Shown: one piece after another, positions 38-64,000 of the stretch
How the letters are laid out: each line of letters begins with the position of its first letter
How positions within the stretch are numbered: position 1 is the first letter of the stretch
Assembly (NCBI GenBank): GCA_026389455.1
Contig: JAPLHV010000020.1
Coordinates: forward strand, 16,447-80,446
DNA length: 64,000 nucleotides
Direction: 5' to 3'
DNA from: Coprothermobacterota bacterium
Lineage (GTDB): Bacteria; Caldisericota; JANLFM01
Position numbers and translations under genes: made by a program
Notes under the pieces: model-generated
Database searches by the model: none
What the model saw: only the letters and a program-made list of their open reading frames with translations
What the model was told of the DNA's origin: nothing

Positions 38-83
38 GACACCCTGCCGGGGGCTATTTACCCTGCCGGGGGCTATTTAGTGC
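38..83 (+). repeat. Core-family array, 19-bp period, 2 units (CCCTGCCGGGGGCTATTTA)
   Basis: Direct reading: GACA-CCCTGCCGGGGGCTATTTA-CCCTGCCGGGGGCTATTTA-GTG. An imperfect inverted partner, CCTCCGGCAG, lies at about 100-110. Confidence 0.9.
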
Positions 84-3000
84 GAGGAGATTTCCTCCGG
101 CAGTGAGATCTGCGCTCGAAGCGCTGGGTCAGACAGGAGCTTGATCGGCGATTGAGGATTTTGCAGGATGTCCAGCAACTTCTCCACCTGGTAGCCGGAA
201 TCCTCGCCAGCCGATCGTAACCAAGCTGCAATCTCCAGCCACTTCTTGATATCGGCTGGGACAAACGTAATTGCGACCCCCTTTTCCTCATTGTCCGGGT
301 TTGTTTCCAGGGTTTCTACCGTGGCCGAGGCGAGCAACCAGCGCACAGCTTCGATGAAAGCTTCCCGAGAGAACCAGAGGATTCCGTTCCAGCGGTGAAC
401 TCCCAGCCACTTGCGGGCTTCCCCATCGGCAAAGAGGCGATGCACGGCTTCTGTGGCGGCGAGGAGGGCGTCATGCCGGCGAGCGTGAAGTGTGAAGCGC
501 AGGCTGAGCTCCATGCGGACAATGGCCGACCCGAGGGCTGCGCCTTGCATCGAGAAACCAAGGTTTACCAAGGCTTCCTCCAGGCTGCCGGACATCCGCC
601 AAGCTTCCAACCGATCCCGGCCTAGATTTCCTGTTCGCTCGTTGGCAGAGAGGTTTCCCAAAGGGCGCAGCAAGGCGCAAGCCAGGAGGATCGCTCCCCG
701 TCGGGGCCATTCTTCTTGATCCGGCAACAGCTCGGCGCCAGGGATGGCTTGCGCAAGGAGGGCTTGTGTCAGGGATGGCAGGAGACGGATCTGATGGATC
801 TCGTGCAGTACTTGGCCAATCAAGGGCGAGAGGTCTGTTTGGACTTCTGCCGCGGAAGCGATATCCGCGAGGAATCTCGCCATTCTTCTTTCCAGATCAC
901 TGAAGGTCGCTTCCTCTTCCTCAGGCGCCAGCAGACGATGCGCCAGATCGGCCTCAAGGAGGGAGCGCAAAGATCGCTGGAGTGGCTTCCTCAGTAGTTC
1001 AATGATCGCTTCTTCCAGACTGGGGACGCCACGTCCCGCAAGGTTTGCTGCGAGTTCGCGGTAGGGGCGGTTTGGCGCGTCTCGTACCTGGCGGAAGTCC
1101 TGAAAAAGATGTCGTTGGTAGGCTTCCAATTCTAGAGAAAGCCCTTCCTTCCAGAGCAGAGGGCAAGGAAGGATGTACTCGAAGCCTTGAGTGGCGTCAC
1201 GGAAGAGGCAGCAACTGCCAGGATCCTCATCCAAGCCAAGCCACGCGGCCAGCGAAGAGGTGCGCAGACGGCGGTCTCCTTTCGGGTCGCGTTCCAGAAA
1301 GGGCACTGAATCACGGATTACCCCGCGCGTGGCGGCAAAGCGGTTGTGGTAGACGACTAGCGCCCTCTCGTCCTCATCCCCATTGGAGTAAGCGAAGACG
1401 TTCTCATCGGCCTCCCCCCCCGGTGTCCGGAAATCATAGAGAAGGAAGTGTTCCACGCCGGCGAAGAGCGAGCGGCGGCGAAGCAGAGGGAAGATCTCTC
1501 GCTCATGGGCCGCCACAAGCGCAGGGTCTGCCTCCTCCTGTCGCATGGGCCGCTCATACTCCATCCCGTACTTCTCCTCGAAACCCTCCACCTGGCCGTG
1601 GCCGAACATCGGCAGACCGGGAAGGGTAGCCAGCATGGTGCATGCGCCCAGGTACTTGTCGCCCTTGCCGAATTGGTCGACAGCGGTTCGCTCGTCCGGG
1701 TTGCTGAGAAAGTTGACGAAGCGCCTTAGCACTTCGGGGTCAAAGGCAAGGGTCTCCTTCATCACCCGGCGATAGCCGGCATTGTCCTCGTCCCGGAGCA
1801 TGTGCATGAATGCGCTGTTGTACACCCGGTGCATCCCCAGGGTGCGGACGAAGTACCCCTCCATCAACCAGAAAGCCTCGGCCAAGAGCAAGGTGTCGGG
1901 CGCCTCGCGGCTTACCCGGTCGACCACTTCTCTCCAGAATTCGACCGGCATCAACCGGTCGAATTGGGCTTTGGTCAAGCCATGTTCCCAGCGAGAGGGA
2001 ATCCCACCGCCGCTTCCCGGTTCTGGGAACCACAGACGCTGGAAGTGTTTGCGGGCCAACGTCATGGCCGCGTCGAAGCGGATCACAGGGAACCGTTTGG
2101 CTACCTCCAGGATGGCATTGATGACCGCCTCCCTTGTCTCGGGATTGGTGTAATCAAGTTGGGCCGTGTCGTTCCAAGGCATGTTGGTGCCATCGTTGCC
2201 ATGGTAGGTGTAGCGCTGTTCACCGGTTTCCCGGTCCTTGCGGAGGAACGTCACAGCAGCATCCTGGCGGCTGTAGTAGTGGTTTTCCAAGTAGATCGCC
2301 GCACGTGGGTCGCCGGAGAGATCAGGACCATTGAAGGAATAGGCAGGATAGGGGCACTCCGGCAGAGCGAGGAAATAGTCAGGGTGTTCCATTACCCAGC
2401 GGGAATCGATGCCCATGTGGTTCGGCACCATGTCGCTGGCCAAGCGAATCCCATAGGTTGAGGCGCGTTGTCGCAGGCCGGCCAAGGCAGCCTCTCCGCC
2501 AATTCGTTGGGCGATGGTGTAATCATAGATGGAGTAGGCTGAAGCGGCTGCCCCGGGGTTGCCGCAGAGCCGCTTGATCTCCGCCGAGGCAGCGCTTCGT
2601 TCCCAGACGCCGATCAGCCAAAGACCGGTAAAGCCTCGGCGGGCGAGAAGTTCCAGCTCTTCATCCGGGATCTCATCCAAACGATGAATTGACCGTCCGT
2701 ACTGGCGTGAAAGCTGCTCCAACCATACATAGGCGTTCTTGGAGAGCAGAACCAGCCGGGGCATCCATTGCCGGTCCAGGCTGAACGCTTCCGGTTCGCC
2801 TTGCAGAAGCGAGTAGTCGGGTGGGCGGCCCGGTCCGGCGCCACCTCCCACTTCTCCGGCAGGCCCTCCAAAAGAGAGAGCCAAGGCTCGTTCCTCCTCA
2901 GCCAGCAGATCCAGGCCGCTGAGCAAGCGGTAGAGGGATTTCCCCAGCAACAGACCCCAGTGGCGTCGTATGTAGTCCAACTGACCGGCCAGGGAGCGGG

Positions 3001-5913: not shown

Positions 5914-6612
5914 GTCGAAGTCTGGCCAAAGAGTGGAGGTGATGTAGTAGTAAGCCTCTTCGATCTGCCAAAGGAGGAAGTTGCTGACGCGCTGTTCTCC
6001 CGAGGTACGGATCAGCAGGTCAGGGAAGGAGAGGTCGGGGGCATAGAGGAAACGACGAAAGCCCTCCTGGTCGAGATGGAAGAACTCCCTGGCGGGGGCT
6101 GAAGAGTTGATGCTTTTCTCTCGGGCGCCCAAGGCAGCGTTGGCGGCATCCACCATCTCCGGCTTGGCGCCGTAGTTGATGGCCAGGTTGAGGATCATGC
6201 CGGTGCATCCAGCTGTCTTTTGGAGGGCGAAGGCGATGGCCTGGTGGATGCGGGAAGGCATCTGCGCGATGCGGCCGCTCAAACGTAACCGGACGTTGTT
6301 TTCGGCCAATTCCCAGGCAATGTCGTAAAGGTATTCCTCCAACAATACGATCAGTGCCTGCACTTCTTCCATGGGACGATTCCAGTTCTCGGTGGAGAAG
6401 CCGAAGAGGGTGAGCGCTTGAATTCCTAGGGCATGGCAATTTCGGGTACAGCGCTTGGCCGTTTCCCCCCCCGCTCGGTGCCCTTGAGGTCTGGTCAGTC
6501 CACGATTTAGCGCCCAACGTCCATTCCCGTCCAAGAGGATGGCAATGTGGCGGGGGAGGCGCAATCCCCCTTGTTCGATGCTATTTCTTACTTCTCCGAC
6601 TGATAAGGTCAA
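5827..6612 (-). CDS. uppS: Undecaprenyl/isoprenyl diphosphate synthase (cis-prenyltransferase)
   Basis: Motifs PRHIAILLDGNGRWA and FGFSTENWNRP, plus the C-terminal RTSGEQRVSNFLLWQ. Confidence 0.92.
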   Translation of the reverse strand: MTLSVGEVRNSIEQGGLRLPRHIAILLDGNGRWALNRGLTRPQGHRAGGETAKRCTRNCHALGIQALTLFGFSTENWNRPMEEVQALIVLLEEYLYDIAWELAENNVRLRLSGRIAQMPSRIHQAIAFALQKTAGCTGMILNLAINYGAKPEMVDAANAALGAREKSINSSAPAREFFHLDQEGFRRFLYAPDLSFPDLLIRTSGEQRVSNFLLWQIEEAYYYITSTLWPDFDLQELWQAILAFQRRCLQPSRESQPAKEK

Positions 6613-11611: not shown

Positions 11612-11612
11612 A

Positions 11613-11737
11613 GGACTCGCTGCCGCGGGCTGATTACTATGCTGCCGCGGGCTGATTACTATGCTGCCGCGGGCTGATTACTATGCTGCCGCGGGCTGAT
11701 TACTATGCTGCCGCGGGCTGATTACTACGCTGCCGCG
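11613..11737 (+). repeat. Core-family array (CGCGGG variant), 22-bp period, 5 units plus a partial core
   Basis: GGACTC-(GCTGCCGCGGGCTGATTACTAT)x5 (the last unit ends ...TAC), then GCTGCCGCG. It begins 2 nt after the BON gene stop. Confidence 0.92.
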
Positions 11738-11745
11738 CATAGTGA

Positions 11746-52084: not shown

Positions 52085-52362
52085 TGCGCCCAGTATTGCT
52101 TTTGACCATGGGTGATCTGCTGCTCCTGCGAAAGAAGCACCCCTGCGGCTCAGATCGCTGGGAAGTGGTTCGGCTGGGGGCAGATATTCGCATCCGCTGT
52201 TTGGGCTGCGGACATCTTGTTTTACTGCCCCGTTCCCAGTTGGAGAAGCGAGTTCGTAAAAAGCTGAGTTCTTGTCCCTCGGAAGAGAGCAAGAATGGTG
52301 GCGCTGGGAAGCCAGGGTGCTATGATGTAGAAAAATCCACGCATGAAGGTGAGAAGCAATGA
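52084..52362 (+). CDS. DUF951 family protein
   Basis: MGDLLLLRKKHPCGSDRWEVVRLGADIRIRCLGCGHLV matches the recalled DUF951 pattern. Confidence 0.75.
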   Translation: MRPVLLLTMGDLLLLRKKHPCGSDRWEVVRLGADIRIRCLGCGHLVLLPRSQLEKRVRKKLSSCPSEESKNGGAGKPGCYDVEKSTHEGEKQ

Positions 52363-53288
52363 TTATTCGAAATCTCATCATTTTACTGATCGATCTTGGA
52401 TTGGGCGTCTTTTGGGCTCTTGAAAGCAAGTATGCTTACTTTGGCAATCTCTTCATCGAACCATACCGCAGTTGGATGCCGGTTTTCTGCTTTGTCCTGA
52501 TCCTGCTCTGGACGCTTCTTTCGATTCTGATCCTGCGTCGTTGGGGTTGGGCTTCGCTTGGGCTGCTGATAACCTTTCTAGCCTATGGAGCAGTTGTCTT
52601 TCTCTTCCCGCCCGCGCTAGAACTCCTCAACCTGGTGAATTACTCAACAGTCCTCGCCGCCGTCTTATTAAGCGTCTTCCTTGTCTCGTTTTACGCTGAG
52701 CATGCTGCCGGACTGTTGGGCTATATGGTTCAAGCCCGGAAGCACCAAGTGACAGTACAAACAGCCGCAGGCCCTTTTTGGTTCCTCTTTGCCTTGATCC
52801 TCGGTTTCCTCAATGCCTTGGCCCTCTACTACAATTGGCTCCCCACTGCTTCGATCACTTTTCTTGGCTCCCCGCAGATCTTCCGCCTCTCCCTCTATCT
52901 CTTATTCGCCACCCTCGGCGGTCTACTCACCCTCTCCACGGGTTGGAGCGCCTTGGCCTCTTTCTCCTTTGTCTTCCTCAGTGAGTTTCTCACACTGTTT
53001 CTTTACACGACCTATGCTTCCTTCAGTCAGTTGGGGGCAGAACTAGCAGGGGTCTTCGTGGACCCGGCACGGGTCACACTGCCCGCCTTGATGGTTTTCA
53101 TCAGCACATTATGGGGGTTGGCCGCCGGCTACTACGCACAGCGCTACTTCTTTCTGAAGGAGGGAAAGCGGGCAGGTGAATTGGAGAAATTGGAACTGAC
53201 GGCAAAAGATGGGGAATTGCTTGCCGTCTCGACTACAGAGAGAATACCTGCCCTTGCTGTTCTGCCGGAGACACCTCCAACTTCTTAA
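52359..53288 (+). CDS. Polytopic membrane protein, function unknown
   Basis: 309-aa ORF with about 8 hydrophobic segments; its start overlaps the upstream stop. Confidence 0.5.
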   Translation: MIIRNLIILLIDLGLGVFWALESKYAYFGNLFIEPYRSWMPVFCFVLILLWTLLSILILRRWGWASLGLLITFLAYGAVVFLFPPALELLNLVNYSTVLAAVLLSVFLVSFYAEHAAGLLGYMVQARKHQVTVQTAAGPFWFLFALILGFLNALALYYNWLPTASITFLGSPQIFRLSLYLLFATLGGLLTLSTGWSALASFSFVFLSEFLTLFLYTTYASFSQLGAELAGVFVDPARVTLPALMVFISTLWGLAAGYYAQRYFFLKEGKRAGELEKLELTAKDGELLAVSTTERIPALAVLPETPPTS

Positions 53289-53291
53289 CTT

Positions 53292-53320
53292 TTGGCACGA
53301 AGAGCCATTCATGATAGTAT
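53292..53320 (+). promoter_or_regulatory. Sigma-70-type promoter for rpsF-ssb-rpsR
   Basis: TTGGCA (53292-53297), a 17-nt spacer, then TAGTAT (53315-53320). Confidence 0.5.
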
Positions 53321-53380
53321 ACAAGGCTGTCACCAACCCTGCTCCGAACAACGGAGCAAATCCCGAAGGGAGTGAACAGA

Positions 53381-53662
53381 GTGCGTCCATACGAAGTATG
53401 TCTGATCGCCTCCCCCGCCCTGGCCCCGGAAGAGGCTGACAAGCTGGCAGAGAAGGTGCAAGAGATCATCACCAGCACAGGTGGCGAGGTAAGCAAAGTG
53501 GACCGCTGGGGGAAGCGTAGATTGGCTTTTCCCATCCAGCGGCAGAACGAGGGGTATTATTTCATCTTTACCCTCCTAGGCACCCCGTCCAGTATCGTTG
53601 AGGCCAAACGCCAAATGACGCTGGCGCCGGAAGTCATTCGATTCATGTTCGTGCGACAGTGA
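53381..53662 (+). CDS. rpsF: 30S ribosomal protein S6
   Basis: [12 protein letters not shown]...[24 protein letters not shown] start chosen; the ATG at 53372 is an alternative. Confidence 0.9.
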
Positions 53663-53675
53663 TGGGTCGGACCTC

Positions 53676-54110
53676 ATGATCAACCATGTCATTTTGATGG
53701 GAAACTTGGTCGCTGACCCCGAGTTGCGGTATACCGCGGCCGGCGTCTCGGTGGCGACCTTTCGCTTGGCAGTGAACGACAACTACACCACGCAGAGTGG
53801 AGAGCGTCGGGAGAATGCCTATTTTTTCAATGTGGTGGTGTGGAAGAAACAAGCAGTGAACGTGGCCAACTTCCTGAAGAAAGGGAGAAGAGCCTTGGTG
53901 GAGGGACGCTTGACCAGCCGCACCTACGAGAAAGATGGCCAGAAAGTCTATCGGGTGGAGATCACTGCCACCTCAGTGACTTTCCTTGACCGACCGGCCA
54001 CCACCTCTGACAGCGGTTCCGAGCCATTTTCTCCCTCAATCGAGGAGAGCGAGACCTTTCCACCCGACGATTTTTCGACCGATCGTTCTAACGACGAGTT
54101 TGTAGGCTAG
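53676..54110 (+). CDS. ssb: Single-stranded DNA-binding protein
   Basis: [34 protein letters not shown] and an acidic C-terminal tail. Confidence 0.92.
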
Positions 54111-54125
54111 GAAGAGAGAAAAACG

Positions 54126-54395
54126 ATGGATTCTAGAAAGCCCATGGACCCGCGGCGACGCCGTGCCCGCGGCGCCAAAGATAGAAGGCCCCGCAAGAAA
54201 TTCTGCGCATTCTGCGCTGAAAAGAACCTTTTCATCGATTACAAAGATGCCAACCGTTTGCGCAAGTTCCTTAGCGAAAAAGGCAAAATTATCCCTCGCC
54301 GCGTCACCGGGAATTGCGCCAAACACCAGCGGACCTTAACCCGCGCCATCAAGAGGGCTCGCGTGATGGCTCTCTTGCCGTACGTGGTCAACTAG
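54126..54395 (+). CDS. rpsR: 30S ribosomal protein S18
   Basis: [44 protein letters not shown]. Confidence 0.92.
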
Positions 54396-54396
54396 A

Positions 54397-54846
54397 ATGA
54401 AGGTTATTCTTTTAAAAGACCACCCAGAACTGGGGAAACAAGGCGCCCTGATAGATACGAAAGATGGGTATGCCCGCAACTACCTCATCCCCCGTCAGTT
54501 GGCCGAGGAGGCTACTGATGGCGCCTTGCGCACCCTTGAGCAACGCAAGTCCGGCTGGAAGAAGCGCGAAGACCGAGAGCTGGCGGAAGCAAAAAAGATT
54601 GCCGCTGTGATAGAAGGGAAACCATTGGTGTTTCTCACCGAGGCAGGGGAGAGCGGTAAGCTATTCGGGTCTGTGACTGCACAAGATATCGTCGAGGCGA
54701 TTCTCTCCACTTGTCAGATTTCCGTCGAACGAAAGCGGGTGCTGCTAGAGGATTCGATTCGCACTCTTGGTAAGCACAGAATCCCCATCAAACTGCACCG
54801 AGAGCTGACCATCGAGGTCGAGCTGGAAGTAAAAGCGAAGGAATAG
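54397..54846 (+). CDS. rplI: 50S ribosomal protein L9
   Basis: MKVILLKDHPELGKQGALIDTKDGYARNYLIPRQLA. Confidence 0.93.
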   Translation: MKVILLKDHPELGKQGALIDTKDGYARNYLIPRQLAEEATDGALRTLEQRKSGWKKREDRELAEAKKIAAVIEGKPLVFLTEAGESGKLFGSVTAQDIVEAILSTCQISVERKRVLLEDSIRTLGKHRIPIKLHRELTIEVELEVKAKE

Positions 54847-54850
54847 AGCC

Positions 54851-56197
54851 TTGTCTACTGAGCTCTCCCGTTTACCTCCCCACAATCTAGACGCGGAGCA
54901 GGCGGTCTTAGGTTCCTTGCTGTTGGATCGGGATGTGATCGCCCAGGTTCTGGAGATACTTAGCCCAATCGATTTTTATCGTGAACCGCATGCCATCATC
55001 TTCTCGGCTATCGCCGACCTATTGGAACGTGGGGAGCCGGTCGATATCGTGACGGTAGTGGATAGCCTGCGCAATCAAGGAAAGCTGGAGACGGTGGGGG
55101 GGAGTTCCTACATTGCCTCCCTTGCCTCGGTGGTTCCAACTGCCTCAAATGCACTCTACTATTCGCGCATTGTCGAACAAAAATCCGTTCTGCGTCGCCT
55201 CATTGAGGCTGGAACGAGAATCGCTGCCCTTGGTTACGACACGGACACCCCCCTTGAGGAATTGATCGACCAATCCGAAAAACTGGTTTTCGCCATTGCC
55301 CAACGGCGCCTTTCCACGGATTTCGTGGAGATCAAGGGATTGGTTACCGAGGTATATGCGCGGATCGATAATCTATTCCACAATAAGCGCTTGACCACCG
55401 GCGTACGGACCGGGTTCGACGCCCTGGATCGCATGACCGCCGGCTTCCAGTCTTCCGACATGGTCATCGTGGCCGCTCGACCCTCGGTGGGCAAGACATC
55501 CTTCTGCCTCAATGTGGCCGAACATGTCGCATTGAGGGAGAAGCTTCCTGTCGCCATATTTTCACTGGAGATGAGCAAAGAACAGTTGGTCCAGCGGATG
55601 ATCTGTTCCCAGGCGCGCGTCGATGCCCAAAAGGTGCGCACGGGCTTCCTCAGCAACGAAGACATGGAGCGCCTCAGCAACTCGGTGCCAGAGCTTTACC
55701 AAGCCCCCATCTACATCGACGATACACCCGGAATCACCCTCATGGAGATTCGTGTCAAGACGAGGCGCTTGAAGATGGAACGAGGTTTGGGAATCGTCGT
55801 GGTTGATTACCTGCAGTTGATGTCCAACCGGACCCGGGCCGAGAATCGCGTGCAAGAGATCTCTGAGATGACGCGTGGTCTGAAAAACCTCGCCCGAGAA
55901 CTGCAAGTCCCTATCATCGTCGTCTCACAGCTCTCCCGTGAGGTGGAGAAACGCGAGGGGAAGAAGCCTCAACTATCAGATTTGAGAGAGTCCGGTTCCA
56001 TTGAACAAGATGCAGACACGGTCTTAATGCTCTTCCGAGAGGATCTCTACAAAACACGTGAGAGCGGCGATCAAACCGGCGCCACGGACATCATCATCGC
56101 CAAGCAGCGCAATGGGCCAATCGGAACCATCAAGTTGAAGTTCATCAAAGAATACACCCGCTTCGAGAACTTGGGCGCCCACGGTGAGTCCTTCTAA
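54851..56197 (+). CDS. dnaB: Replicative DNA helicase DnaB
   Basis: PPHNLDAEQAVLGSLL, Walker A ARPSVGKTSF and IVVVDYLQLM. Confidence 0.95.
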   Translation: MSTELSRLPPHNLDAEQAVLGSLLLDRDVIAQVLEILSPIDFYREPHAIIFSAIADLLERGEPVDIVTVVDSLRNQGKLETVGGSSYIASLASVVPTASNALYYSRIVEQKSVLRRLIEAGTRIAALGYDTDTPLEELIDQSEKLVFAIAQRRLSTDFVEIKGLVTEVYARIDNLFHNKRLTTGVRTGFDALDRMTAGFQSSDMVIVAARPSVGKTSFCLNVAEHVALREKLPVAIFSLEMSKEQLVQRMICSQARVDAQKVRTGFLSNEDMERLSNSVPELYQAPIYIDDTPGITLMEIRVKTRRLKMERGLGIVVVDYLQLMSNRTRAENRVQEISEMTRGLKNLARELQVPIIVVSQLSREVEKREGKKPQLSDLRESGSIEQDADTVLMLFREDLYKTRESGDQTGATDIIIAKQRNGPIGTIKLKFIKEYTRFENLGAHGESF

Positions 56198-56269
56198 GCA
56201 GGGTTTGAGAGCTAGAGTGTGAAGCCTGAAAACGACCCTGCTGCACCGTGTAGGTAAAAAGTGGCTGGT

Positions 56270-56298
56270 TTGCCGGTTCGCCCCTTTTTTCCTATAAT
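56270..56298 (+). promoter_or_regulatory. Sigma-70-type promoter for tRNA-Lys
   Basis: TTGCCG (56270-56275), a 17-nt spacer, then TATAAT (56293-56298), about 30 nt upstream of the tRNA. Confidence 0.55.
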
Positions 56299-56329
56299 TA
56301 GGGCTTGTTCCAGCGCTGGCAGTACGCGT

Positions 56330-56405
56330 GGGCCGTTAGCTCAGTTGGTAGAGCATCTGCCTTTTAAGCAGGGGGTCGCAGGTTCGAGTCCTGCACGGCT
56401 CACCA
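56330..56405 (+). tRNA. tRNA-Lys (anticodon UUU), encoded CCA
   Basis: GGGCCGTTAGCTCAGTTGGTAGAGCATCTGCCTTTTAAGCAGGGGGTCGCAGGTTCGAGTCCTGCACGGCTCACCA, with anticodon loop CTTTTAA. Confidence 0.93.
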
Positions 56406-56480
56406 AAACCTTCACGCATCTCAGGCGACCCAAGGAAGGAAGATCGATCAAGTCATCGTGCTGAGGCCGGAGAAGGAATC

Positions 56481-57353
56481 GTGTGCCAACTGATTGTCCA
56501 CGGAGGAGCCGGGAAAGTCCGTAATTCCCGGTCATACCGAGAGGGAGTGGAAGAAGCCCTTCGCCGTGGTTTCGCTGTACTGGAGAAGGAAGGCGCTTTG
56601 GAAGCCGTCATGGCAGCCGTCCTCTCTCTTGAGGAAAACCCGTTGTTCAACTGCGGGACCGGGTCTGCTTTGAATTTGGACGGAGAGGCGGAGATGGATG
56701 CCTCCGTCATGACCAGCGAGGATCGTTTTGGAGCAGTGGGCTCTGTAAAACGGGTCGAGCACCCCATCTTGCTTGCCAAGCGTGTGATGGAGGAGACGGA
56801 CCACCTCTTGATCGTCGGAGATGGAGCAGAACGCCTGGCTCGTTTCTGGGGATACCCACTTTACGATCCTGTTATTGAGAGCCGTAGGGATGAGCTGGAG
56901 GATGTCAAACGCAAGGGCAGCGCTTTCCTTCCCAAACTGCACAGCTTTCTAGGGGAAGAGGCGAAGGGAACCGTCGGTGCAGTGGCTCGCGATCGGATGG
57001 GTCGCATCGCTGTCGCCACTTCCACAGGAGGGTACGCCGCCAAGGCTCCCGGACGCATCGGAGATTCGGCTATCTTGGGCGCCGGAACCTATGCCTCGCG
57101 CTGGGGAGGCGCGTCAGCCACAGGGCATGGCGAGCAAATCTGGCGGCAACTTCTCTGCTTCGAAGCAGTAGAGGAGATGCGGCTTCACCCTGCCGGGGAA
57201 GTGATCTCGCGTCTGGTGAGAGAAGCCAAGGAGCAGGGTTGTAGCTGCGGTTTAATCGGAATCGATTGGCGAGGGCGCATGGCTCAGGCCTTCAACGCGG
57301 AAGCGATGCTCTGGGGAACTATAGAAAATGGGCAGTTGACGCTCGATGCGTAG
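56481..57353 (+). CDS. Isoaspartyl peptidase / L-asparaginase (Ntn-hydrolase, plant-type) paralog 1
   Basis: LIVHGGAG, NCGTGSALNLDGEAEMDASVM and the autoprocessing site GTVGAVARD. Confidence 0.85.
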   Translation: MCQLIVHGGAGKVRNSRSYREGVEEALRRGFAVLEKEGALEAVMAAVLSLEENPLFNCGTGSALNLDGEAEMDASVMTSEDRFGAVGSVKRVEHPILLAKRVMEETDHLLIVGDGAERLARFWGYPLYDPVIESRRDELEDVKRKGSAFLPKLHSFLGEEAKGTVGAVARDRMGRIAVATSTGGYAAKAPGRIGDSAILGAGTYASRWGGASATGHGEQIWRQLLCFEAVEEMRLHPAGEVISRLVREAKEQGCSCGLIGIDWRGRMAQAFNAEAMLWGTIENGQLTLDA

Positions 57354-57403
57354 AAGAATCAGACCACCTTGTTTGCTATAAAGGCAATGGGGTAAGCGGC
57401 ATC

Positions 57404-58303
57404 ATGCAACTTATCGTCCACGGTGGGGCTTGGAACGATCATGGGGGATCTTGGCGCGAGGTCTCCGGTGAAAGTTATCAAGAGGGTATGCGACGGGCGC
57501 TTGACCGCGGGATTGCCGCACTAGAGAGGGAAAACGCGCTGGAAGCAGTCATTGCCTCCATTGAGGTTCTTGAGGATGACCCTCTTTTCAATTGTGGGTC
57601 CGGTTCTTCCTTGAATCTTGACGGGAAAGCCCAGATGGACGCCGCCGTGATGACCAGCGAAGGGATGTTCGGGGCGGTGGCGGCTCTAGAGAATGTGCAG
57701 CACCCGATCGATGTGGCGCGTGAAGTGATGACGCGCACCGATCATCTCCTCCTGGTGGGGGAAGCCGCTACGAGGTTTGCTCGCTCCTGCGGTTTTCCTC
57801 CCTACGATCCGACCACAGACTCGCAACGGTCTCTATGGCGTGAGATCGTTGGCCAGGGGCAGGCCAATCTTCTTCCCCACCTGGAGAATTTCCGAGGGTT
57901 GCAGCGTTGCAGTGATACGGTTGGAGCAGTAGCCAGAGACCGAAGTGGGCGGTTGGCAGTGGCTTGCTCCACCGGAGGTTTGGCTGGGAAGCTCCCGGGC
58001 CGGGTTGGCGACACGCCGATCTTAGGAGCTGGGCTTTTTGCCTCTCGTTGGGGAGGCGCCGCCGCTACCGGCCACGGGGAACAGATCATGCGCCGTTTAC
58101 TGGCTTTCCGCGCAGTTCAGATGATGCGCCGGGAGCCTGTCTTGAAAGCTGTCGCCACTCTTCTGCCTGAGGATCCGCGGACCTTCGCAGGAGGCCTTAT
58201 CGGGATCGACTGGCGCGGTCAGATCGGTTATTACGCCAATACCGAAAGGATGCCTCTGGGCATCTATGATAGAGGAAAGATTCTGATTCGTTCCTTGGAC
58301 TAA
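57404..58303 (+). CDS. Isoaspartyl peptidase / L-asparaginase paralog 2
   Basis: MQLIVHGGAW, NCGSGSSLNLDGKAQMDAAVM and DTVGAVARD; tandem to paralog 1. Confidence 0.85.
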   Translation: MQLIVHGGAWNDHGGSWREVSGESYQEGMRRALDRGIAALERENALEAVIASIEVLEDDPLFNCGSGSSLNLDGKAQMDAAVMTSEGMFGAVAALENVQHPIDVAREVMTRTDHLLLVGEAATRFARSCGFPPYDPTTDSQRSLWREIVGQGQANLLPHLENFRGLQRCSDTVGAVARDRSGRLAVACSTGGLAGKLPGRVGDTPILGAGLFASRWGGAAATGHGEQIMRRLLAFRAVQMMRREPVLKAVATLLPEDPRTFAGGLIGIDWRGQIGYYANTERMPLGIYDRGKILIRSLD

Positions 58304-58304
58304 T

Positions 58305-58346
58305 CAGCCTTCGGCAGAAGAAGACATGCTGCCGCAGGCTGGCTGC
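58305..58346. repeat. Single element (GCAGG variant) forming a hairpin with an adjacent inverted partial copy
   Basis: CAGCCTTCGGCAG - 11-nt loop - CTGCCGCAGGCTG (13-bp stem, 1 mismatch), starting 2 nt after the asparaginase paralog 2 stop. The flank AGACATG is as in the other GCAGG copies. Confidence 0.8.
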
Positions 58347-58393
58347 TAATGCACCGCAAGGAGCGACTCCACACAGCCCCTGGGATCGCGACC

Positions 58394-58422
58394 TTGCGAG
58401 GGAGGATGCGATCGGGTAGACT
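58394..58422 (+). promoter_or_regulatory. Candidate promoter for the tRNA-Glu/tRNA-Gln pair
   Basis: TTGCGA (58394-58399), a 17-nt spacer, then TAGACT (58417-58422). Confidence 0.45.
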
Positions 58423-58438
58423 ATCTCCGGCTTTTTGC

Positions 58439-58514
58439 GCCCCCATAGTCTAGTGGCCGAGGACATCGCCCTTTCAAGGCGAAGACGGCGGTTCAATTCC
58501 GCCTGGGGGTACCA
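58439..58514 (+). tRNA. tRNA-Glu (anticodon UUC), encoded CCA
   Basis: GCCCCCATAGTCTAGTGGCCGAGGACATCGCCCTTTCAAGGCGAAGACGGCGGTTCAATTCCGCCTGGGGGTACCA, with anticodon loop CTTTCAA. Confidence 0.9.
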
Positions 58515-58580
58515 TAGTTTTCGAAAAGAACGTCTGAACCGAGTCGAAGCGGATGCTGGAACTCGTCAGGTATTTTTCGC

Positions 58581-58654
58581 TGGGGAGTCGTCCAGTGGTA
58601 GGACAGCGGACTTTGGATCCGCCGACGGTGGTTCGAGCCCATCCTCCCCAGCCA
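58581..58654 (+). tRNA. tRNA-Gln (anticodon UUG), encoded CCA
   Basis: TGGGGAGTCGTCCAGTGGTAGGACAGCGGACTTTGGATCCGCCGACGGTGGTTCGAGCCCATCCTCCCCAGCCA, with anticodon loop CTTTGGA. Confidence 0.9.
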
Positions 58655-58664
58655 AAACGAACAA

Positions 58665-59669
58665 GTGAGGATCATGCAAGAGCGCTTGTACGCAGTCGTG
58701 TTGGCAGCTGGCATGGGTAAGCGAATGAAATCCGCACTCCCCAAGGTCTTGCACTCCTTACTGGGGCGGCCGATGATTTCCTACGCCTTGGATTCCTTAA
58801 GACCGCTGAACTTGGCGCAGACAGTGATCGTCGTCGGCTATGGTGGGGAACAGGTGCAAGAGCAAATCGGGTCCGGCTACCGTTATGTGTGGCAGGATCA
58901 CCAGCTTGGGACTGGACACGCCTTGCAGCAAGCCAGGGAAGTCTTGAGTGAGGAGACCGGGACATTGCTGGTCTTGCCGGGAGACATCCCTTTATTGCGA
59001 GCCGATCATCTCTCTCGTTTGTTGGAAGTTCACCAGGAATCGAAGTGTTTGGGTTCAGTTCTGACTGCTGATGTGGAGGATCCTTCTCTCCTGGGGCGTG
59101 TTCGTCGCAATGCCGATGGCGCCTTCGACTCGATCATTGAGGAAGCGGATGCCGGCCCCGCCGAGAAGACTATCCATGAGGCGTCCACTTCAGTCTACGC
59201 ATTTTCTCTACCGGCGGTCTTCGACTACCTGGAGCGTCTCTGCCCCGAAAACGCCCAAGGCGAGTATTACCTGAACGATGTGCTGCCGATGATGCGGCAA
59301 GCGGGAAATGTGCAAGTTGTCAGAGTAGATGATATTCCCATCATCGGAGTCAATGATCGAGTGCAGTTAAGTCAATGCCGGCGTATCTTGCATGACCGCA
59401 TATTGCGCCAGTGGATGAGAGCAGGAGTCACCATGGAAGACCCGAGCAGCGTCTCTTTGGACTGGGAAGTGCGCTTGAAGCCGGATACCGTGATCAAGCC
59501 TTTTACTGTTCTGGAAGGCGCCTGCCGTATCGGTCAAGGTTGTGTGCTGGGACCCTTCCTGCATTTAGTTGACGCCGTCATCCCGGACGGGACACGCTGC
59601 CGCGGGCTGTCGTGCTGCCGGGGGCTGTCATCCATGCAAGGCCTGTCCAATCGAGGAGAGGAACGATGA
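58665..59669 (+). CDS. GlmU-like sugar-1-phosphate nucleotidyltransferase with a truncated left-handed beta-helix (acetyltransferase) domain
   Basis: N-terminal VVLAAGMGKRMKSALPKVLH and GTGHAL. Only about 334 aa against roughly 450 for GlmU. The C-terminus (…[14 protein letters not shown]…) is encoded by the repeat at 59590-59633. The position upstream of prs matches glmU synteny. Confidence 0.72.
   Translation: MRIMQERLYAVVLAAGMGKRMKSALPKVLHSLLGRPMISYALDSLRPLNLAQTVIVVGYGGEQVQEQIGSGYRYVWQDHQLGTGHALQQAREVLSEETGTLLVLPGDIPLLRADHLSRLLEVHQESKCLGSVLTADVEDPSLLGRVRRNADGAFDSIIEEADAGPAEKTIHEASTSVYAFSLPAVFDYLERLCPENAQGEYYLNDVLPMMRQAGNVQVVRVDDIPIIGVNDRVQLSQCRRILHDRILRQWMRAGVTMEDPSSVSLDWEVRLKPDTVIKPFTVLEGACRIGQGCVLGPFLHLVDAVIPDGTRCRGLSCCRGLSSMQGLSNRGEER
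59590..59633 (+). repeat. Core-family array, 18-bp period, 2 cores (one CGCGGG, one GGGGG)
   Basis: GGACACG-CTGCCGCGGGCTGTCGTG-CTGCCGGGGGCTGTCATCC. Confidence 0.88.
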
Positions 59670-60661
59670 GCTTGGAAGAGCAGACAGCCCCCGGCAGGGA
59701 GTTTCATCTATTCAGCGGGAATGCCAATCTAGCCCTGGCCCAAGAGGTCGCCGATTTTCTCCATATTCCTCTCGGCGCCATGGAAGCATCGCGCTTCCCG
59801 GACGGCGAGATCCATGTCCGTTGCCAAGAGAGCGTGCGCGGACAGGATGTCTTCCTCCTCCAGCCGACTTGCCCACCCGTCAACGAGAACTTGGTGGAAT
59901 TGCTGGTCATGATCGACTCGCTGAAACGAGCGTCGGCCAGGAGCATCACCGCCATCGTGCCATACTACGGCTACGGTCGCCAGGATCGCAAGACCAAGCC
60001 GCGAGAGCCGATCACTGCTAAATTGGTGGCCGACTTGTTGACGGTGGCCGGAGCCAATCGAGTGGTGGCTGTTGACCTTCATGCCGGCCAGATCCAGGGC
60101 TTCTTCAACATCCCCTTCGACAATCTGACAGCCAGCCTGCTCTTTCAAGACTACTTCCTTAAGAAAAAAGGTCTGCAAGAGGCAGTAGTGGTCTCACCCG
60201 ACATCGGCCGGGTTCCCCGAACCCGCATTCTCTCGGATAAACTGAACTACTCCCTGGCCATCGTTGAGAAGCGTCGCATGGGCCCTGACCGAGTGGAAAC
60301 GATGGGAGTGATCGGGGACGTCAGCGGGAAGGTGGCAGTCCTGGTGGACGACATGATTACCACCGGGAAGACGCTGCTCTCTGCTGCCGACACGATCTAT
60401 AAGGCCGGAGCGCGGCAGATCATCGCTGCTTGCACCCACGCGGTCCTTTGTGGCGACTCGGTGAAAATGCTTGCCGATTCTCCAATTGCCGAATTAGTGG
60501 TGACCAATACTGTTCCCATCCCCCCTGAAAAGATGATCGACAAGATTAAGGTCCTCTCCGTGGCGCCGCTCTTGGGGGAAGGGATCACCCGCATCCGCGA
60601 GAACCGTTCCATCTCAGACCTCTTCAGCTACGGTTCATCCGAACAAATCGCCCTGTATTAG
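59666..60661 (+). CDS. prs: Ribose-phosphate pyrophosphokinase
   Basis: HLFSGNANLALAQEVA, the PRPP-binding VLVDDMITTGKTL, and the RBS GAGGAGAGG. N-terminal codons 8-12 (APGRE) are encoded by a reverse-oriented repeat element. Confidence 0.93.
   Translation: MSLEEQTAPGREFHLFSGNANLALAQEVADFLHIPLGAMEASRFPDGEIHVRCQESVRGQDVFLLQPTCPPVNENLVELLVMIDSLKRASARSITAIVPYYGYGRQDRKTKPREPITAKLVADLLTVAGANRVVAVDLHAGQIQGFFNIPFDNLTASLLFQDYFLKKKGLQEAVVVSPDIGRVPRTRILSDKLNYSLAIVEKRRMGPDRVETMGVIGDVSGKVAVLVDDMITTGKTLLSAADTIYKAGARQIIAACTHAVLCGDSVKMLADSPIAELVVTNTVPIPPEKMIDKIKVLSVAPLLGEGITRIRENRSISDLFSYGSSEQIALY
59684..59705 (-). repeat. Single reverse-oriented element inside the prs 5' end
   Basis: ACAGCCCCCGGCAGGGAGTTTC, inverted relative to 59590-59633. 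Confidence 0.85.
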
Positions 60662-60676
60662 GAAAGGAGAATATTC

Positions 60677-61312
60677 ATGGCAGAAGTCCGATTAGAGGCA
60701 TCCCGAAGGGCTGCCACAACCAAGGGGGAAACACACGGCTTACGGCGGCAGGGATGGATTCCCGCTGTCGTGTATGGCAAAAACATTGAGCCGATAGCCA
60801 TCGCCGTTGATCACAAAGGCTTCGTCAAGGCACTGGAGCGGAGTGGCTCCAACGCCATCTTCAGCTTACTGGTAGAGGGTGAAACCAAACCAGTCGTGAC
60901 GATTGTGAAGGAACTGCAGCGCGAGCCCGTCTACCGAACCATCCAGCACATTGATTTTCATGCCATCTCCCTGGAATTAGTGATCAGCGCCCATGTACCG
61001 CTCCATTTGCGCGGAACTCCTATCGGCGTCAAGGAGGGCGGCATTATGCAAGAGAATCTTCACCAAGTTGAAGTAGAGTGCCTGCCGATGGACATCCCTA
61101 GTTACCTGGCAGTAGATGTCAGCGGGTTGGGCATCGGTGATAGCCTATTCGCCGCAGACTTGGTTCTTCCAGAGAAAGTAAGACTCGTCACCGATGCCGG
61201 CACGGCTGTAGTTACTTTGATTCCACCCGAGAAGGAAGAGGTTGTTGAGACACCCGCTGTCGTGGCGGAAGCTCCTAGCAAATCTGCCGAGAGGACTGCC
61301 AAAGAAGCGTAA
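60677..61312 (+). CDS. rplY: 50S ribosomal protein L25 / general stress protein Ctc
   Basis: GETHGLRRQGWIPAVVYGK...HIDFH, with a C-terminal extension typical of the Ctc form. Confidence 0.9.
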   Translation: MAEVRLEASRRAATTKGETHGLRRQGWIPAVVYGKNIEPIAIAVDHKGFVKALERSGSNAIFSLLVEGETKPVVTIVKELQREPVYRTIQHIDFHAISLELVISAHVPLHLRGTPIGVKEGGIMQENLHQVEVECLPMDIPSYLAVDVSGLGIGDSLFAADLVLPEKVRLVTDAGTAVVTLIPPEKEEVVETPAVVAEAPSKSAERTAKEA

Positions 61313-61319
61313 TCTTGAA

Positions 61320-61437
61320 GGACTCCCTGCCGGGGGCTGTAGTCTCCCTGCCGGGGGCTGTCAAGATGCCGGGGGCTGTCAAGATGCCGGGGGCTGTCAA
61401 GATGCCGGGGGCTGTCAAGATGCCGGGGGCTAGACTG
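61320..61437 (+). repeat. Core-family array: 2 cores 21 bp apart, then 18-bp units (GCCGGGGGCTGTCAAGAT) x3 plus a terminal core
   Basis: GGACTCC-CTGCCGGGGGCTGTAGTCTCC-CTGCCGGGGGCTGTCAAGAT-(GCCGGGGGCTGTCAAGAT)x3-GCCGGGGGCT-AGACTG. The unit is identical to the argS array. Confidence 0.93.
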
Positions 61438-61992: not shown

Positions 61993-64000
61993 ATCTCGCC
62001 TCGTTGCTTCTCTCTGAACAAGGTATGCGGAAGCTGATCAGCAGCTTGGAAGCAGGTCATCCTCAGCGTCTAGGTCAGGTGGGGGAAGGTCTTCGGCCAC
62101 TTCTCATTTACGCTATTTATCAGTCGTTGCAGCGCCCTCTGCTGTTGCTCTTTGCAGAAGGAGAACCGATGGAGAGGACAGCATCCTTGCTGGCCGAGTG
62201 GGGCCTTCCAGTGTACCCTTTTCCAGCGCTGAAACCGCACTTTGGCGAGAAAGCTCCTGCTGATTCGACTACTCTTGCAACTCGCCTGAGCACGCTGTGG
62301 GAGCTCCGGGGAGATCGTCTGCCGGTAGTCTGCGCAACCTTGAGATCCTTGCTTCAGCCTTGCCCTTCACCCAGCTATTTCAACCAACAGCGCATGGCAT
62401 TTCGTCTCGGCCAAGAGGTGTGGCGTGAGGACTTCCTGAGTTTCCTCAACGGGGCGGGCTATAGCCGAAGCGCCCGAGTGGAAGCGCTCGGTGAATACAG
62501 CCAGCGAGGCGCCATCGTTGATGTGTTCACGCCAAGCTCACCCCTTCCATTGCGCTTCGAATTCGAAGGAGACGTCTTGGCTTCGATACGACTCTTTGAT
62601 CCCAGTGCGCAAGTTTCCGAAGGGCAGGTTGAGGAAGCGCTGCTGCTCCCCTGGCGGGCTTTCTCGATTCATGAGGAAGGGTTGGCGGCAATCCAAGCCG
62701 GCTTGTCTCGCCAGCGCAAGAGGCTGCGCGAGCGCCTTCGGACCAGCGAGGCTCGGTTTCTAGAGGAGACGGTCGGGTCTGACTTGAGATTGTTGGAAAA
62801 GGGAATGCACTTTCTTGGGGAAGAATATTATCACCCTTTCTTCTCTCCCGTAGCTAGTCTTTTATCTCATTTGCTCCCTTCTACCTTGATTCTATCGGAA
62901 GAGGAAGGGAAACTGCAGCAAGCCTTCGAGGAGACGCGGCGCGCCAGTGAAATGTCCTACCGCAGCGCTCTTGATCAAGGCGAGGCAGTCCCGTATGGCA
63001 CGACAGCCCCCGGCAGCGCGACAGCCCGCGGCAGCACGACAGCCCCCGGCAGCACGACAGCCCCCGGCAGCACGACAGCCCCCGGCAGGGTGTCCTGGGA
63101 GATTGGCGCCGGCCAGACCGCTGAGTTTCCCTTGCTTCCCGATTGGTGGTCGCTTCAGGCTGTTTTTCACTCTTTCCCGTCCCTCTCCTTTTCTTCCTTC
63201 GGGGGAGATGTCGATTTCCCTTACCAAGCCTTGCCCTCATACCAGGGGCAACTCTCCGATTTTCTTCCAGTGATGAAGGGATGGTTAAAGGAAGGGCGGC
63301 GGGTGATCCTTGCCGGCAGAGGGATAGCCCGCTACCAGGATCTCTTTCGCAGCCAGGATCTTCCGCTTGAAGAGATGGATTGGGCTCAAGATCTGCAACC
63401 AGGAGCGGCTTATCTGTGGAAAACGGCGCCTGCGCCTGGTTTCACACTTCCCTCCTTGGAATTAACCCTCGTCTCCGAGATGGAGTTGTTCGGTTGGCGG
63501 CGAAAACCAAAAAGCGAGCGCCGTTACCGCGAAGCGAAGATTCTTAGCTCTTGGGAAGAGCTGAAACCAGGGGATCTGGTCGTTCATGAGACATACGGGA
63601 TCGGGCGTTACCAGGGACTGGCCACTCTGGAGATCGATGGTCTTTCTCGAGACTACATCCAGATCTCCTACGCTGACCAGGACAAACTTTATGTTCCCAG
63701 TGAACAGATTTATCTGGTGGCCAAGTACCTAGGAGACAACGTCAAGCTGCCTTCTTTGTCCCGCCTGCATTCCACCGATTGGGCGCGCACCAAACGCAAA
63801 GCACGACGGGCAGTGGCTGAAATTGCACATCAACTGCTGGAGCTATATGCCGCCCGAGAGGTCGCCGCTCCCGAGCCCTATCCCGAGGTTCAGCCTTGGG
63901 AAGAAGATCTCTCCATGACTTTCGCCTTTCCCGAGACAGCAGACCAAGAGAGAGCCATTCAGGATGTCATGAGGGATCTGCAACGGCAAAAACCGATGGA
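61989..64000 (+). CDS. mfd: Transcription-repair coupling factor Mfd (3'-partial, runs off the window) with an in-frame repeat insertion
   Basis: Open frame from the ATG at 61989, which overlaps the pth stop. Hand translation gives GEYSQRGAIVDVFTP, RFEFEGDVLASIRLFD, and later GDLVVHETYGIGRYQGL and YADQDKLYVPSEQ. (TTAPGS)x5 is encoded at 63000-63098. Confidence 0.9.
   Translation, partial: MNLASLLLSEQGMRKLISSLEAGHPQRLGQVGEGLRPLLIYAIYQSLQRPLLLLFAEGEPMERTASLLAEWGLPVYPFPALKPHFGEKAPADSTTLATRLSTLWELRGDRLPVVCATLRSLLQPCPSPSYFNQQRMAFRLGQEVWREDFLSFLNGAGYSRSARVEALGEYSQRGAIVDVFTPSSPLPLRFEFEGDVLASIRLFDPSAQVSEGQVEEALLLPWRAFSIHEEGLAAIQAGLSRQRKRLRERLRTSEARFLEETVGSDLRLLEKGMHFLGEEYYHPFFSPVASLLSHLLPSTLILSEEEGKLQQAFEETRRASEMSYRSALDQGEAVPYGTTAPGSATARGSTTAPGSTTAPGSTTAPGRVSWEIGAGQTAEFPLLPDWWSLQAVFHSFPSLSFSSFGGDVDFPYQALPSYQGQLSDFLPVMKGWLKEGRRVILAGRGIARYQDLFRSQDLPLEEMDWAQDLQPGAAYLWKTAPAPGFTLPSLELTLVSEMELFGWRRKPKSERRYREAKILSSWEELKPGDLVVHETYGIGRYQGLATLEIDGLSRDYIQISYADQDKLYVPSEQIYLVAKYLGDNVKLPSLSRLHSTDWARTKRKARRAVAEIAHQLLELYAAREVAAPEPYPEVQPWEEDLSMTFAFPETADQERAIQDVMRDLQRQKPM
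63000..63098 (-). repeat. Core-family array, reverse orientation, 18-bp period, 5 cores, inside mfd
   Basis: ACGACAGCCCCCGGCAGC-GCGACAGCCCGCGGCAGC-(ACGACAGCCCCCGGCAGC)x2-ACGACAGCCCCCGGCAGGGTGTCCTGG. Confidence 0.92.

Follow-up and report, generated by a model that had tools for sequence, protein, structure and literature searches.

What are the short tandem arrays that recur on both strands of a 64-kb stretch of the genome of a Coprothermobacterota bacterium (contig JAPLHV010000020.1; the whole 64,000-nt stretch that was analysed is called the window here), and how did they come to lie in and between its genes? The original prediction, made from these letters without database searches, described a dispersed family of arrays built on a conserved 12-nt core at 16 loci. 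We find 21 loci, and comparison with related genomes shows that copies of the repeat have arrived at their sites as inserted blocks. The arrays probably represent a lineage-specific family of ultra-small, non-coding and non-autonomous repeats, selfish or neutral in character, which are copied to new sites, expanded there and filtered by selection.

The core, CTGCCGSRGGCT, occurs in 48 exact copies on the two strands of the window, where dinucleotide shuffles predict 0.13, and 59 copies match the relaxed form [CAT]TGCCGSRGGCT. When the core was extended to include the sequence on its left (AGRACWCSCTGCCGSRGGCT), 28 matches with at most three mismatches were found, against 0.15 expected. These counts, together with the arrays reported by Tandem Repeats Finder, establish that the dispersed family is real. 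The copies added to the earlier list are those at 6081–6100, 41403–41450, 41597–41616 and 59686–59705, and the second of two copies in the gene of an FTCD_C-domain protein. In the output of Tandem Repeats Finder ten loci had a period of 18 and one a period of 33, and the arrays at 41–79 and 11619–11737 had periods of 19 and 22, respectively. The last two arrays both lie outside coding sequence, as had been noticed. They are not, however, the only exceptions to multiples of three, as a 23-bp period was found at 41404–41448 and one 22-nt unit lies within the PyrG array.

Alignment of more than 100 copies from the window and from related genomes showed that the family has three parts: a 9-nt left head (c-A-G-R-A-C-W-C-S), a 12-nt core (CTGCCG-S-R-GGCT) and body units of 18 nt, each made up of a core and a 6-nt spacer with the consensus RTCNWG. 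An array consists of a head followed by (core + spacer)n, with a period that is overwhelmingly 18 nt and sometimes 21. The head is confined to one end of the array, and the opposite end is cut at variable positions within the unit. The conserved flank is thus the left head, cAGRACWCS, and not the right flank CTRGTTAC that had been proposed, which was not conserved. Nor are the spacers specific to each locus, as first described. They are variant forms of RTCNWG, and loci that lie far apart carry the same 18-mers: the ArgS and Pth arrays, although separated by 48 kb, share the unusual unit TGCCGGGGGCTGTCAAGA, and the ATCAAG unit of the array at 41274 is the same as units at other loci in other genomes, including a locus (L010) of the metagenome-assembled genome (MAG) ELA551. 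Three subfamilies were distinguished, in which CC is followed by CTGCCGGG, CG by CTGCCGCG and TG by CTGCCGCA, and the differences between them are complementary.

Head and core together form a mini-hairpin, a feature absent from the original prediction, with the stem C.YSC/GSR.G (four pairs and one mismatch) and the loop TGCC. Among 97 distinct copies, 97.7% of the cells of the stem were paired, compared with only 50–60% in a control in which the partner was slid by one to three columns. Positions −1:+7 were C:G in 55 copies and G:C in 38, and positions −2:+8 were C:G in 75 copies and U:A in 18. Changes on both sides of the stem (C:G to G:C, C:G to U:A) were found in 56 cells, against 20.6 ± 2.7 in shuffles, none of 500 of which reached 56.

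The window was compared with syntenic relatives, of which L076 is approximately 97% identical to it, L007 approximately 91%, and L008, L009, L010, L014, L117 and L135 approximately 77–86%. Empty orthologous sites were found in relatives for the copies in ArgS, in the spacer between ArgS and kdd, at the N-termini of a 382-aa hypothetical protein (hyp382) and of a MutS-like protein, at the C-terminus of KamD, in PyrG, at both sites in the FTCD_C gene and in ThyX. The converse case was also found: an 18-nt copy lies in the thiolase gene of L007, and the window and L008 have none there. At the MutS–KamD junction four relatives carry between one and four units, and the window carries none. Taken together, relatives at 97%, 91% and approximately 84% identity were empty at most loci of the window and had copies of their own in other places. 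Between the window and L076, every indel of at least 18 nt was located at an element (21, 18, 75 and 36 nt). The net sizes of the inserts were 18, 21, 21, 21, 21, 33, 36, 36, 54, 57, 75, 108 and 132 nt, all of them multiples of 3. Copies therefore differ from their orthologues by indels of 18–132 nt and not by substitutions, so that an uptake-type signal, one of the explanations first considered, is unsupported. Distant orthologues that already carried the same peptide repeats would have spoken for ancient protein features; the orthologous loci of the relatives lack the inserts, which favours insertion.

Copies arrive at new sites as defined blocks of 18 or 21 nt, or as a head with an array of n × 18 nt. 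The defined single inserts consist of AAGAACACC/G plus the core at three naive sites, and of GAAGACATG plus the core at a fourth. A 21-mer inserted in inverse orientation at 58317, in the head of a resident copy, shows direct nesting. Neither target-site duplications nor terminal inverted repeats were seen in the alignments of filled and empty sites, and the two ends of the element are asymmetric. The bases flanking the junctions were often altered, a few on either side, and some targets resemble part of the head, as in PyrG, where CAGGCACGATG may be compared with CAGAACACGCTG.

Once in place, the arrays changed in both length and composition. The Pth array has six cores in the window and two in L076 (a 75-nt indel), and the Mfd array has five units in the window and two in L076. 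At the Mfd site L076 and L117 each carry two units of other types, and the series of units differs between the window, L076 and L117. At DUF1385, L007 has a single C-type unit, and the window has three extra G-type units placed between the head and the old core; one base of the head was switched there with pairing kept. At the BON–purB site the window has 22-nt C-type units, compared with 18-nt G-type units in ELA551 (L014), and the rightmost remnant is common to both. The mismatch rate was 7.0% within elements and 2.9% outside them, a 2.5-fold difference (p = 0.002). The earlier proposal of a small non-autonomous insertion that then grows by slippage thus agrees with the empty orthologous loci and with copy numbers that vary at 97% identity, but slippage alone is insufficient. 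The foreign unit types at DUF1385, Mfd and BON–purB, and the identical variants at distant loci, require that copies exchange or convert sequence with one another, or that new copies insert repeatedly into resident ones.

The window has a GC content of 57% and a monotonic GC skew, and is approximately 95% coding. Its genes are all housekeeping genes, among them ArgS, the lysine-fermentation genes, PyrG, Rho, ThyX, RF1, the NusA-IF2-RbfA-TruB-PNPase operon, RNase J, FtsK, SSB, DnaB, Prs, L25, Pth and Mfd; the closest homologues of PyrG are found in uncultured Coprothermobacterota-like MAGs. Thirteen of the 21 loci lie no more than 45 nt from a gene start or stop, where 3.7 ± 1.7 were expected and none of 5000 random placements reached 13. 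The remaining loci fall within PyrG, ThyX, Mfd, FTCD_C, UppS and a hypothetical protein, where the reading frame is kept. Overall, at least 14 of the 21 loci are in frame in coding sequence, with ArgS, Pth, Prs and KamD as further examples. Approximately 15 copies are in plus and nine in minus orientation on one replichore, and there is no strand bias. The encoded peptides are stop-free and rich in Gly, Ala, Pro and Ser. Plus-orientation copies encode an LPGA-type peptide in five of eight cases, and minus-orientation copies an APG(R/S)-type peptide in four of seven, with one further copy (ACGS, in ThyX) read in the same frame. The 3n unit size (18, 21 nt) is intrinsic to the family and not only the outcome of selection at each locus, and this unit length would make in-frame survival easy. 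The dN/dS values of the host genes relative to L007 were 0.08–0.26, similar to those of neighbouring genes, indicating that the host genes remain under constraint. Blanket pseudogenisation of the array-bearing genes was ruled out on the same grounds. All loci are listed in Table 1.

Table 1. Loci of the repeat family in the window, with their structure, genetic context and state in related genomes
Position	Strand	Structure	Context	Relatives
36–80	+	head + 2 units, period 19	directly 3' of the stop (77–79) of a minus-strand alpha-amylase-like gene	
6081–6100	+	lone, slightly degenerate head + core, AGAACTCCCTGGCGGGGGCT	within UppS coding sequence (gene on minus strand; peptide SAPAREF)	
11612–11737	+	head + 5.4 units, period 22	intergenic, begins right after the stop of a BON-domain gene	
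13197–13310	+	head + 6 cores, period 18	in frame, ArgS N-terminus: V-DTL-(PGAVKM)5-PGAGY...	net +108 nt against the empty site in L007 and L010
14960–14996	-	two units	intergenic, between the ArgS stop and the ribosome-binding site of the next gene	net +36 nt against L007 and L010
17290–17322	-	single copy	in frame, first codons of the hyp382 gene	net +33 nt
17940–18118	.	composite: plus head + core (17940–17959), then four minus 33-nt head-containing units; together a 19-bp perfect inverted repeat	in frame in hyp382	site also filled in L007 and L010, but structured differently; 33-mer array also at another locus in metagenome contig L124
18433–18458	+	single 21-nt insertion, AAGAACACC+CTGCCGGGGGCT	in frame, N-terminus of MutS-domain-V protein (KNTLPGA)	site empty in L007 and L010
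21737–21795	+	head + 3 cores, period 18	in frame, C-terminus of D-lysine 5,6-aminomutase alpha subunit, KamD (NTLPGAIELPGAIELPGAVV*)	absent in L007, L008 and L010
22681–22823	+	head + 7 cores + partial unit, period 18 (one 22-nt unit)	in frame in CTP synthase (PyrG)	net +132 nt; absent in 8 of 8 aligned homologues and in syntenic L007, L008, L010 and L135
25302–25357	+	two 21-nt single insertions (25302–25322 degenerate; 25337–25357 perfect)	in frame in FTCD_C-domain gene	both absent in L007 and L008
29568–29626	-	three CAGG-subfamily units, period 18	in frame in ThyX	net +57 nt against L007 and L008
31118–31191	-	four units	DUF1385 N-terminus	+54 nt against L007
41274–41384	-	head + 6 cores, period 18	interrupts a small DUF503 (ylxP-like) gene between infB and rbfA	
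41403–41450	.	inverted pair of degenerate CAGG-subfamily copies (plus 41403–41422; minus 41431–41450)	within DUF503 remnant	
41597–41616	+	lone CAGG-subfamily copy	3' end of the DUF503-frame open reading frame	
58304–58340	.	inverted pair: resident degenerate minus copy (58304–58315), with plus 21-nt copy GAAGACATG+CTGCCGCAGGCT in its head	after asparaginase gene stop	plus copy absent in 97%-identical L076
59589–59632	+	head + 2 units (one C-type, one G-type)	in frame, C-terminus of GlmU-like gene	one degenerate unit in L076 (18-nt indel)
59686–59705	-	single copy	in frame, Prs N-terminus (QTAPGREF)	common to L076
61319–61431	+	head + 6 cores (first spacing 21 nt, others 18)	in frame, Pth N-terminus	
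62998–63096	-	head + 5 units, period 18	in frame within Mfd, (TTAPGS)n	

The distribution of the element along the chromosome is patchy. At up to three mismatches, the stretches 31200–41200 and 41700–58300 are free of it, compared with approximately one locus per 1.5 kb at 11.6–31.2 kb. Just downstream of the 22-nt array, at 11741–11822, is a perfect palindrome with 18-bp arms (CAGTATGGGGACAGATTT/AAATCTGTCCCCATACTG) and a third, partial copy (GGGGACAGAT), which is conserved in ELA551 (L014). This palindrome is terminator-like or regulatory and stands outside the repeat family. Upstream of the inverted pair at 58304–58340, two adjoining Asparaginase_2-family open reading frames of 290 and 345 aa (56481–58303) each span the full Pfam profile and form a tandem pair of paralogues.

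The distribution of the family was examined by scanning one genome per species with the tandem pattern. Many of the contigs that matched came from three related MAGs, LacPavin Coprothermobacterota MAG_58_15, ELA551 and binchicken_co18_491. Head and core together were also found on metagenome contigs of the Ga0194044 and Ga0247841/2 sample sets, some of which are syntenic with the window. The density of cores is approximately 0.9 per kb in the lineage of the window and approximately 0.2 per kb in L007, an excess that indicates recent expansion in the former. The many matches to the tandem pattern that were scattered over high-GC genomes of actinomycetes and myxobacteria were rejected as members of the family, as they are single-locus tandem repeats selected by the pattern itself. 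Carriage by viruses was likewise rejected, the only matches in viral contigs being five isolated single ones, consistent with chance. In the unrelated Armatimonadia MAG CAZSOQ01 a different 21-nt tandem unit, CCCCTGCCGCGGGCTGGGCAG, occurs on three contigs (L034, L062 and L089) and contains the same CTGCCGCGGGCT core; it may be a parallel family of dispersed arrays or a coincidence of the search pattern. A search of Rfam at the gathering threshold found only four tRNAs in the window and no match at the elements. Literature searches with the exact core returned only irrelevant human and aptamer matches, and a search for Coprothermobacterota together with 'repeat' returned no relevant match.

The family is most simply seen as selfish or neutral DNA and not as a device of the host. 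On the reading that we favour, the founder would have been a unit of approximately 21 nt, composed of the 9-nt head (mAGRACWCS) and the 12-nt core and able to form the mini-hairpin as single-stranded nucleic acid. It may have spread through a trans-acting activity that is encoded elsewhere and recognises the hairpin, or alternatively through homeologous patches or template switching that copied existing elements. Arrays would then lengthen or shorten through slipped-strand mispairing or unequal exchange, and conversion between loci would homogenise them. With so little of the genome non-coding, purifying selection presumably removes all but harmless insertions. The survivors would be those at gene starts, stops and junctions, or in stop-free, in-frame loops rich in Gly, Ala, Pro and Ser.

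Several observations weigh against this interpretation. The replaced bases at the junctions, and the likeness of some targets to the head, are ambiguous, as they fit recombination as well as transposition. The hairpin is tiny, with −2 to −3 kcal/mol as DNA, which is no better than shuffles, and its covariation could be explained in part by the shared descent of three subfamilies instead of many independent events. The internal units of arrays do not form it; the hairpin is restricted to heads, so that the head unit appears to be what is recognised. As the original prediction had stated, Pfam scans of essentially all open reading frames found no transposase, integrase, reverse transcriptase or cas gene in the window. 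Searches by tblastn of 270 kb of clade DNA, which represent only part of each genome, gave no match to approximate IS200 TnpA and E. coli RAYT queries, which is a weak test. The lack of strand bias speaks against a mechanism of the IS200/IS605 kind, in which insertion is tied to the lagging-strand template. Lastly, short-read assemblies may collapse arrays, which limits the array lengths given for the window and for its short-read relatives.

Not all insertions look harmless, and two genes in particular count against a picture of tolerated inserts. The PyrG array replaces the universally conserved AGTMS loop, a segment that reportedly adjoins the ammonia-tunnel residues Pro54, His57 and Val60 in the structures of E. 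coli CTP synthase. Change in PyrG (22538–24301) is accelerated, with 23 window-specific amino-acid changes compared with seven in the L007 lineage, and this acceleration was seen in PyrG alone. In an AlphaFold2 model of the array-bearing protein, built from a 9-sequence alignment, residues 43–142 had a predicted local distance difference test score (pLDDT) below 50. PyrG may be impaired, or may be compensated by a second copy elsewhere. The substitutions include several at residues that are invariant in eight homologues (DLDLGHYERF to DLDLSHDERF, KPTQHSV to KPTRRSV, VGKYVGM to VGNCVGM and GGTMRLG to GGAMRLG), and the PyrG sequence from 22797 onward was confirmed by independent contigs. The second gene, DUF503 (41100–41625), is interrupted by three copies of the element and is frame-disrupted, with two frame switches (b, c, b). 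A spliced reconstruction meets the Pfam DUF503 threshold (25.8 bits), and a 189-aa open reading frame is still open. DUF503 would be either a case of compensated frameshift or a decaying gene. Over a wider region of 18 genes (12209–34388), lineage-specific amino-acid changes numbered 258 in the window and 173 in L007, approximately 1.5 times as many, with L008, L010 and L135 as outgroup; the element density in the window lineage is four- to fivefold above that in L007. Faster protein evolution and expansion of the repeat may be linked, for example through a smaller effective population size.

The alternative that survives best, although we consider it rather doubtful, is a dedicated enzyme or template system: either a single-copy HUH/RAYT-like transposase of single-stranded DNA acting on the head hairpin, or a reverse transcriptase for which a short RNA would serve as the template, in a rolling or telomerase-like manner. 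The latter would leave a head that is fixed, tandem units of 18 nt and a right end that varies, and the arrays do have a constant head at one end only and a right end cut variably within the unit. Covariation in the hairpin implies recognition of a single-stranded form, new inserts are defined 21-nt blocks that lack a target-site duplication, and arrays gain units foreign to their locus. REP/RAYT systems likewise form tandem clusters (PMC3116915). On the other hand, neither the window nor approximately 364 kb of clade DNA showed such a gene, again a weak test, and the copies show no strand bias. New units arise on either side of resident units, and the junction bases are altered, unlike those left by precise cut-and-paste enzymes. 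An IS608-like mode of targeting, suggested by TTAC abutting the right end at ArgS, 14957 and 18441, was rejected: TTAC is on the wrong side and strand for IS608, it did not pre-exist at all empty sites (18441), and a strand bias is lacking.

A further reading on these lines is a hitherto undescribed, 'codon-phased' class of micro-mobile element, in which a unit of 18 or 21 nt with a 5-bp hairpin would be written by a dedicated hairpin-recognising enzyme or an RNA-templated polymerase, and in which the 3n length would open coding sequence, including that of essential enzymes, to insertion. We regard this reading as unlikely.

A function for the host appears improbable. The arrays at gene junctions might serve as binding sites for one protein, as G5/C5 structures (G-quadruplex or i-motif), or as signals for mRNA processing or translational coupling in operons, and the strong enrichment at gene boundaries, the conservation of the hairpin and the existence of arrays with at least four G5 tracts could each be taken to suggest this. 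The sites in Mfd, hyp382, MutS–KamD and BON–purB are moreover occupied across relatives of approximately 84% identity. However, presence or absence differs among close relatives at most loci, both orientations and several reading frames are used, and neither the copy number nor the unit type is stable. Copies within the conserved cores of enzymes such as PyrG, ThyX and thiolase are implausible as regulatory elements. The G5 tracts lie 13 nt apart and the C-type cores have only G3, and enrichment at gene boundaries is also expected if random insertions are subject to purifying selection. The data can be accounted for with neither G-quadruplex or i-motif structures nor protein-binding arrays, both of which the original prediction had raised.

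It is highly improbable that the arrays are independent local minisatellites, produced by duplication and slippage with no movement between loci, or an uptake-signal-like motif built by substitution. Units within an array are indeed near-identical, copy number varies by strain, and some targets resemble part of the element beforehand (PyrG, and CTGCCGGAG at the hyp382 N-terminus in L007). But the 9-nt head and 12-nt core appear together as a clean 21-nt indel where the empty alleles bear little resemblance to the element. Identical unusual variants of the unit recur 48 kb apart, and the same 33-mer and 18-mer arrays are found at non-orthologous loci in other genomes. With indels instead of substitutions separating copies from their orthologues, such an origin is largely refuted by the empty sites.

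Tandem arrays are error-prone in assemblies, but the chance that those of the window are artefacts of assembly or sequencing is negligible, as several independent MAGs and metagenomes contain the family, and short-read contigs assembled from 12 or more independent public runs agree with the window at 99.98–100% identity over 57677–61352 and 22797–28107, take in single copies and array edges, and terminate exactly inside the Pth and PyrG arrays. Six of these contigs end at 61352, within the Pth array, and all short-read (Logan) contigs of the strain (L001–L006 and L146–L151) end within an array (61352; 22797/22814). Such breaks leave the MAGs of this clade fragmented at the arrays, so that array-bearing genes, the PyrG of the window for example, are missing from protein databases.

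Among described systems, the closest in behaviour are the SDR1–8 repeats of Nostocaceae, a group of cyanobacteria (Elhai et al. 2008, Genome Res 18:1484, a study cited in PMC3116915 and PMC5861425). These are reported to be 21–27 nt long, to form a hairpin with compensatory changes and to show insertion polymorphism relative to orthologous regions. They reportedly have no coding capacity and frequently lie within short tandem repeats or other repeats, or are nested with them. Like them, the family described here has a dispersed 21-nt founder, a covarying hairpin, empty sites, nesting, an association with tandem repeats and a non-coding character. It differs in phylum and sequence, in having an 18-nt (3n) tandem unit instead of the SDR heptamer, in its shorter hairpin, and in the many window copies that lie in frame in, or at the ends of, housekeeping genes. 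Homology between the two appears unlikely because the present host is Coprothermobacterota-like, and the likeness is therefore one of behaviour and not of membership.

REP, BIME and REPIN repeats, which are associated with RAYT, are short, GC-rich, high-copy hairpin repeats that are vertically inherited and form inverted doublets and ordered tandem clusters; REPs insert into or beside existing copies with no target-site duplication and are by definition extragenic (PMC3116915, PMC3337134). The short, GC-rich hairpin, the high copy number, vertical inheritance within a lineage, the inverted doublets and tandem clusters, insertion next to one another and the lack of target-site duplications are shared with the present family. 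The latter, however, is largely intragenic or junctional, its stem of only 4–5 bp is far shorter, and it has no conserved GTAG. Unlike REPINs, it forms inverted pairs at only about four loci (17940–18009, 41403–41450, 58304–58340 and 59615/59686), its new inserts being single 18- or 21-mers or direct arrays. RAYT genes were found neither in the window nor in the 270 kb of clade DNA searched with the approximate queries, with the same weakness of the test. MITEs differ in having terminal inverted repeats and target-site duplications, both of which this family lacks, its head being at one end only.

MIRU elements (Supply et al. 1997) have units of 40–100 bp, are intergenic and show short direct repeats at filled sites (PMC3184786). 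They resemble the present family as dispersed minisatellite arrays of variable copy number at gene junctions in operons, with open reading frames continuous with their neighbours and with empty and filled sites. The units in the window are shorter, at 18 nt (also 19, 21, 22 and 33), and occur inside conserved enzymes as well, and a head-plus-body layout is not described for MIRU. RPE (Ogata et al. 2000) are palindromes of approximately 105–146 bp that occur as single insertions in Rickettsia, an intracellular alphaproteobacterium (PMC3184786, PMC10969869). Like our family, they are selfish insertions that keep the reading frame of protein-coding genes, housekeeping genes included, and are tolerated as additional stretches of peptide, but the element described here is 18–21 nt long and arrayed. 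CRISPR arrays have 23–50-nt repeats and unique spacers of similar length, whereas the spacers here are 6–10 nt long and identical within an array, and there are no cas genes in the window. Uptake sequences (USS/DUS) accumulate by substitution, in contrast to the inserted and mostly arrayed copies of the window. The family thus belongs to the ultra-small non-autonomous repeats, yet is none of REP, MITE, MIRU, RPE, CRISPR or uptake sequences. It occurs in a phylum from which no such repeat is known to have been described, and it is set apart by its 3n unit, its head-plus-body architecture and its heavy colonisation of coding sequence.

If confirmed genome-wide, the family would be a second, phylogenetically independent case of mobile DNA near the lower size limit of approximately 20 nt. 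Its habitat, mainly inside and between tightly packed genes, is unlike that of REPs and most MITEs. Should the codon-phased reading prove true, the elements would rank with the smallest known mobile elements and would be a natural source of peptides inserted in frame. The system is tractable: the head hairpin is defined, strains of 97% identity differ by recent insertions, and the environmental populations recur. It offers an entry to the question of copying that is common to SDRs and REPs. In practical terms, short-read assemblies break at the arrays and gene calls in the MAGs of this clade come out inflated or truncated, and the arrays are potential variable-number tandem repeat markers for strain typing. 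For the evolution of proteins, in-frame insertions driven by such repeats create and remodel the loops and termini of essential proteins.

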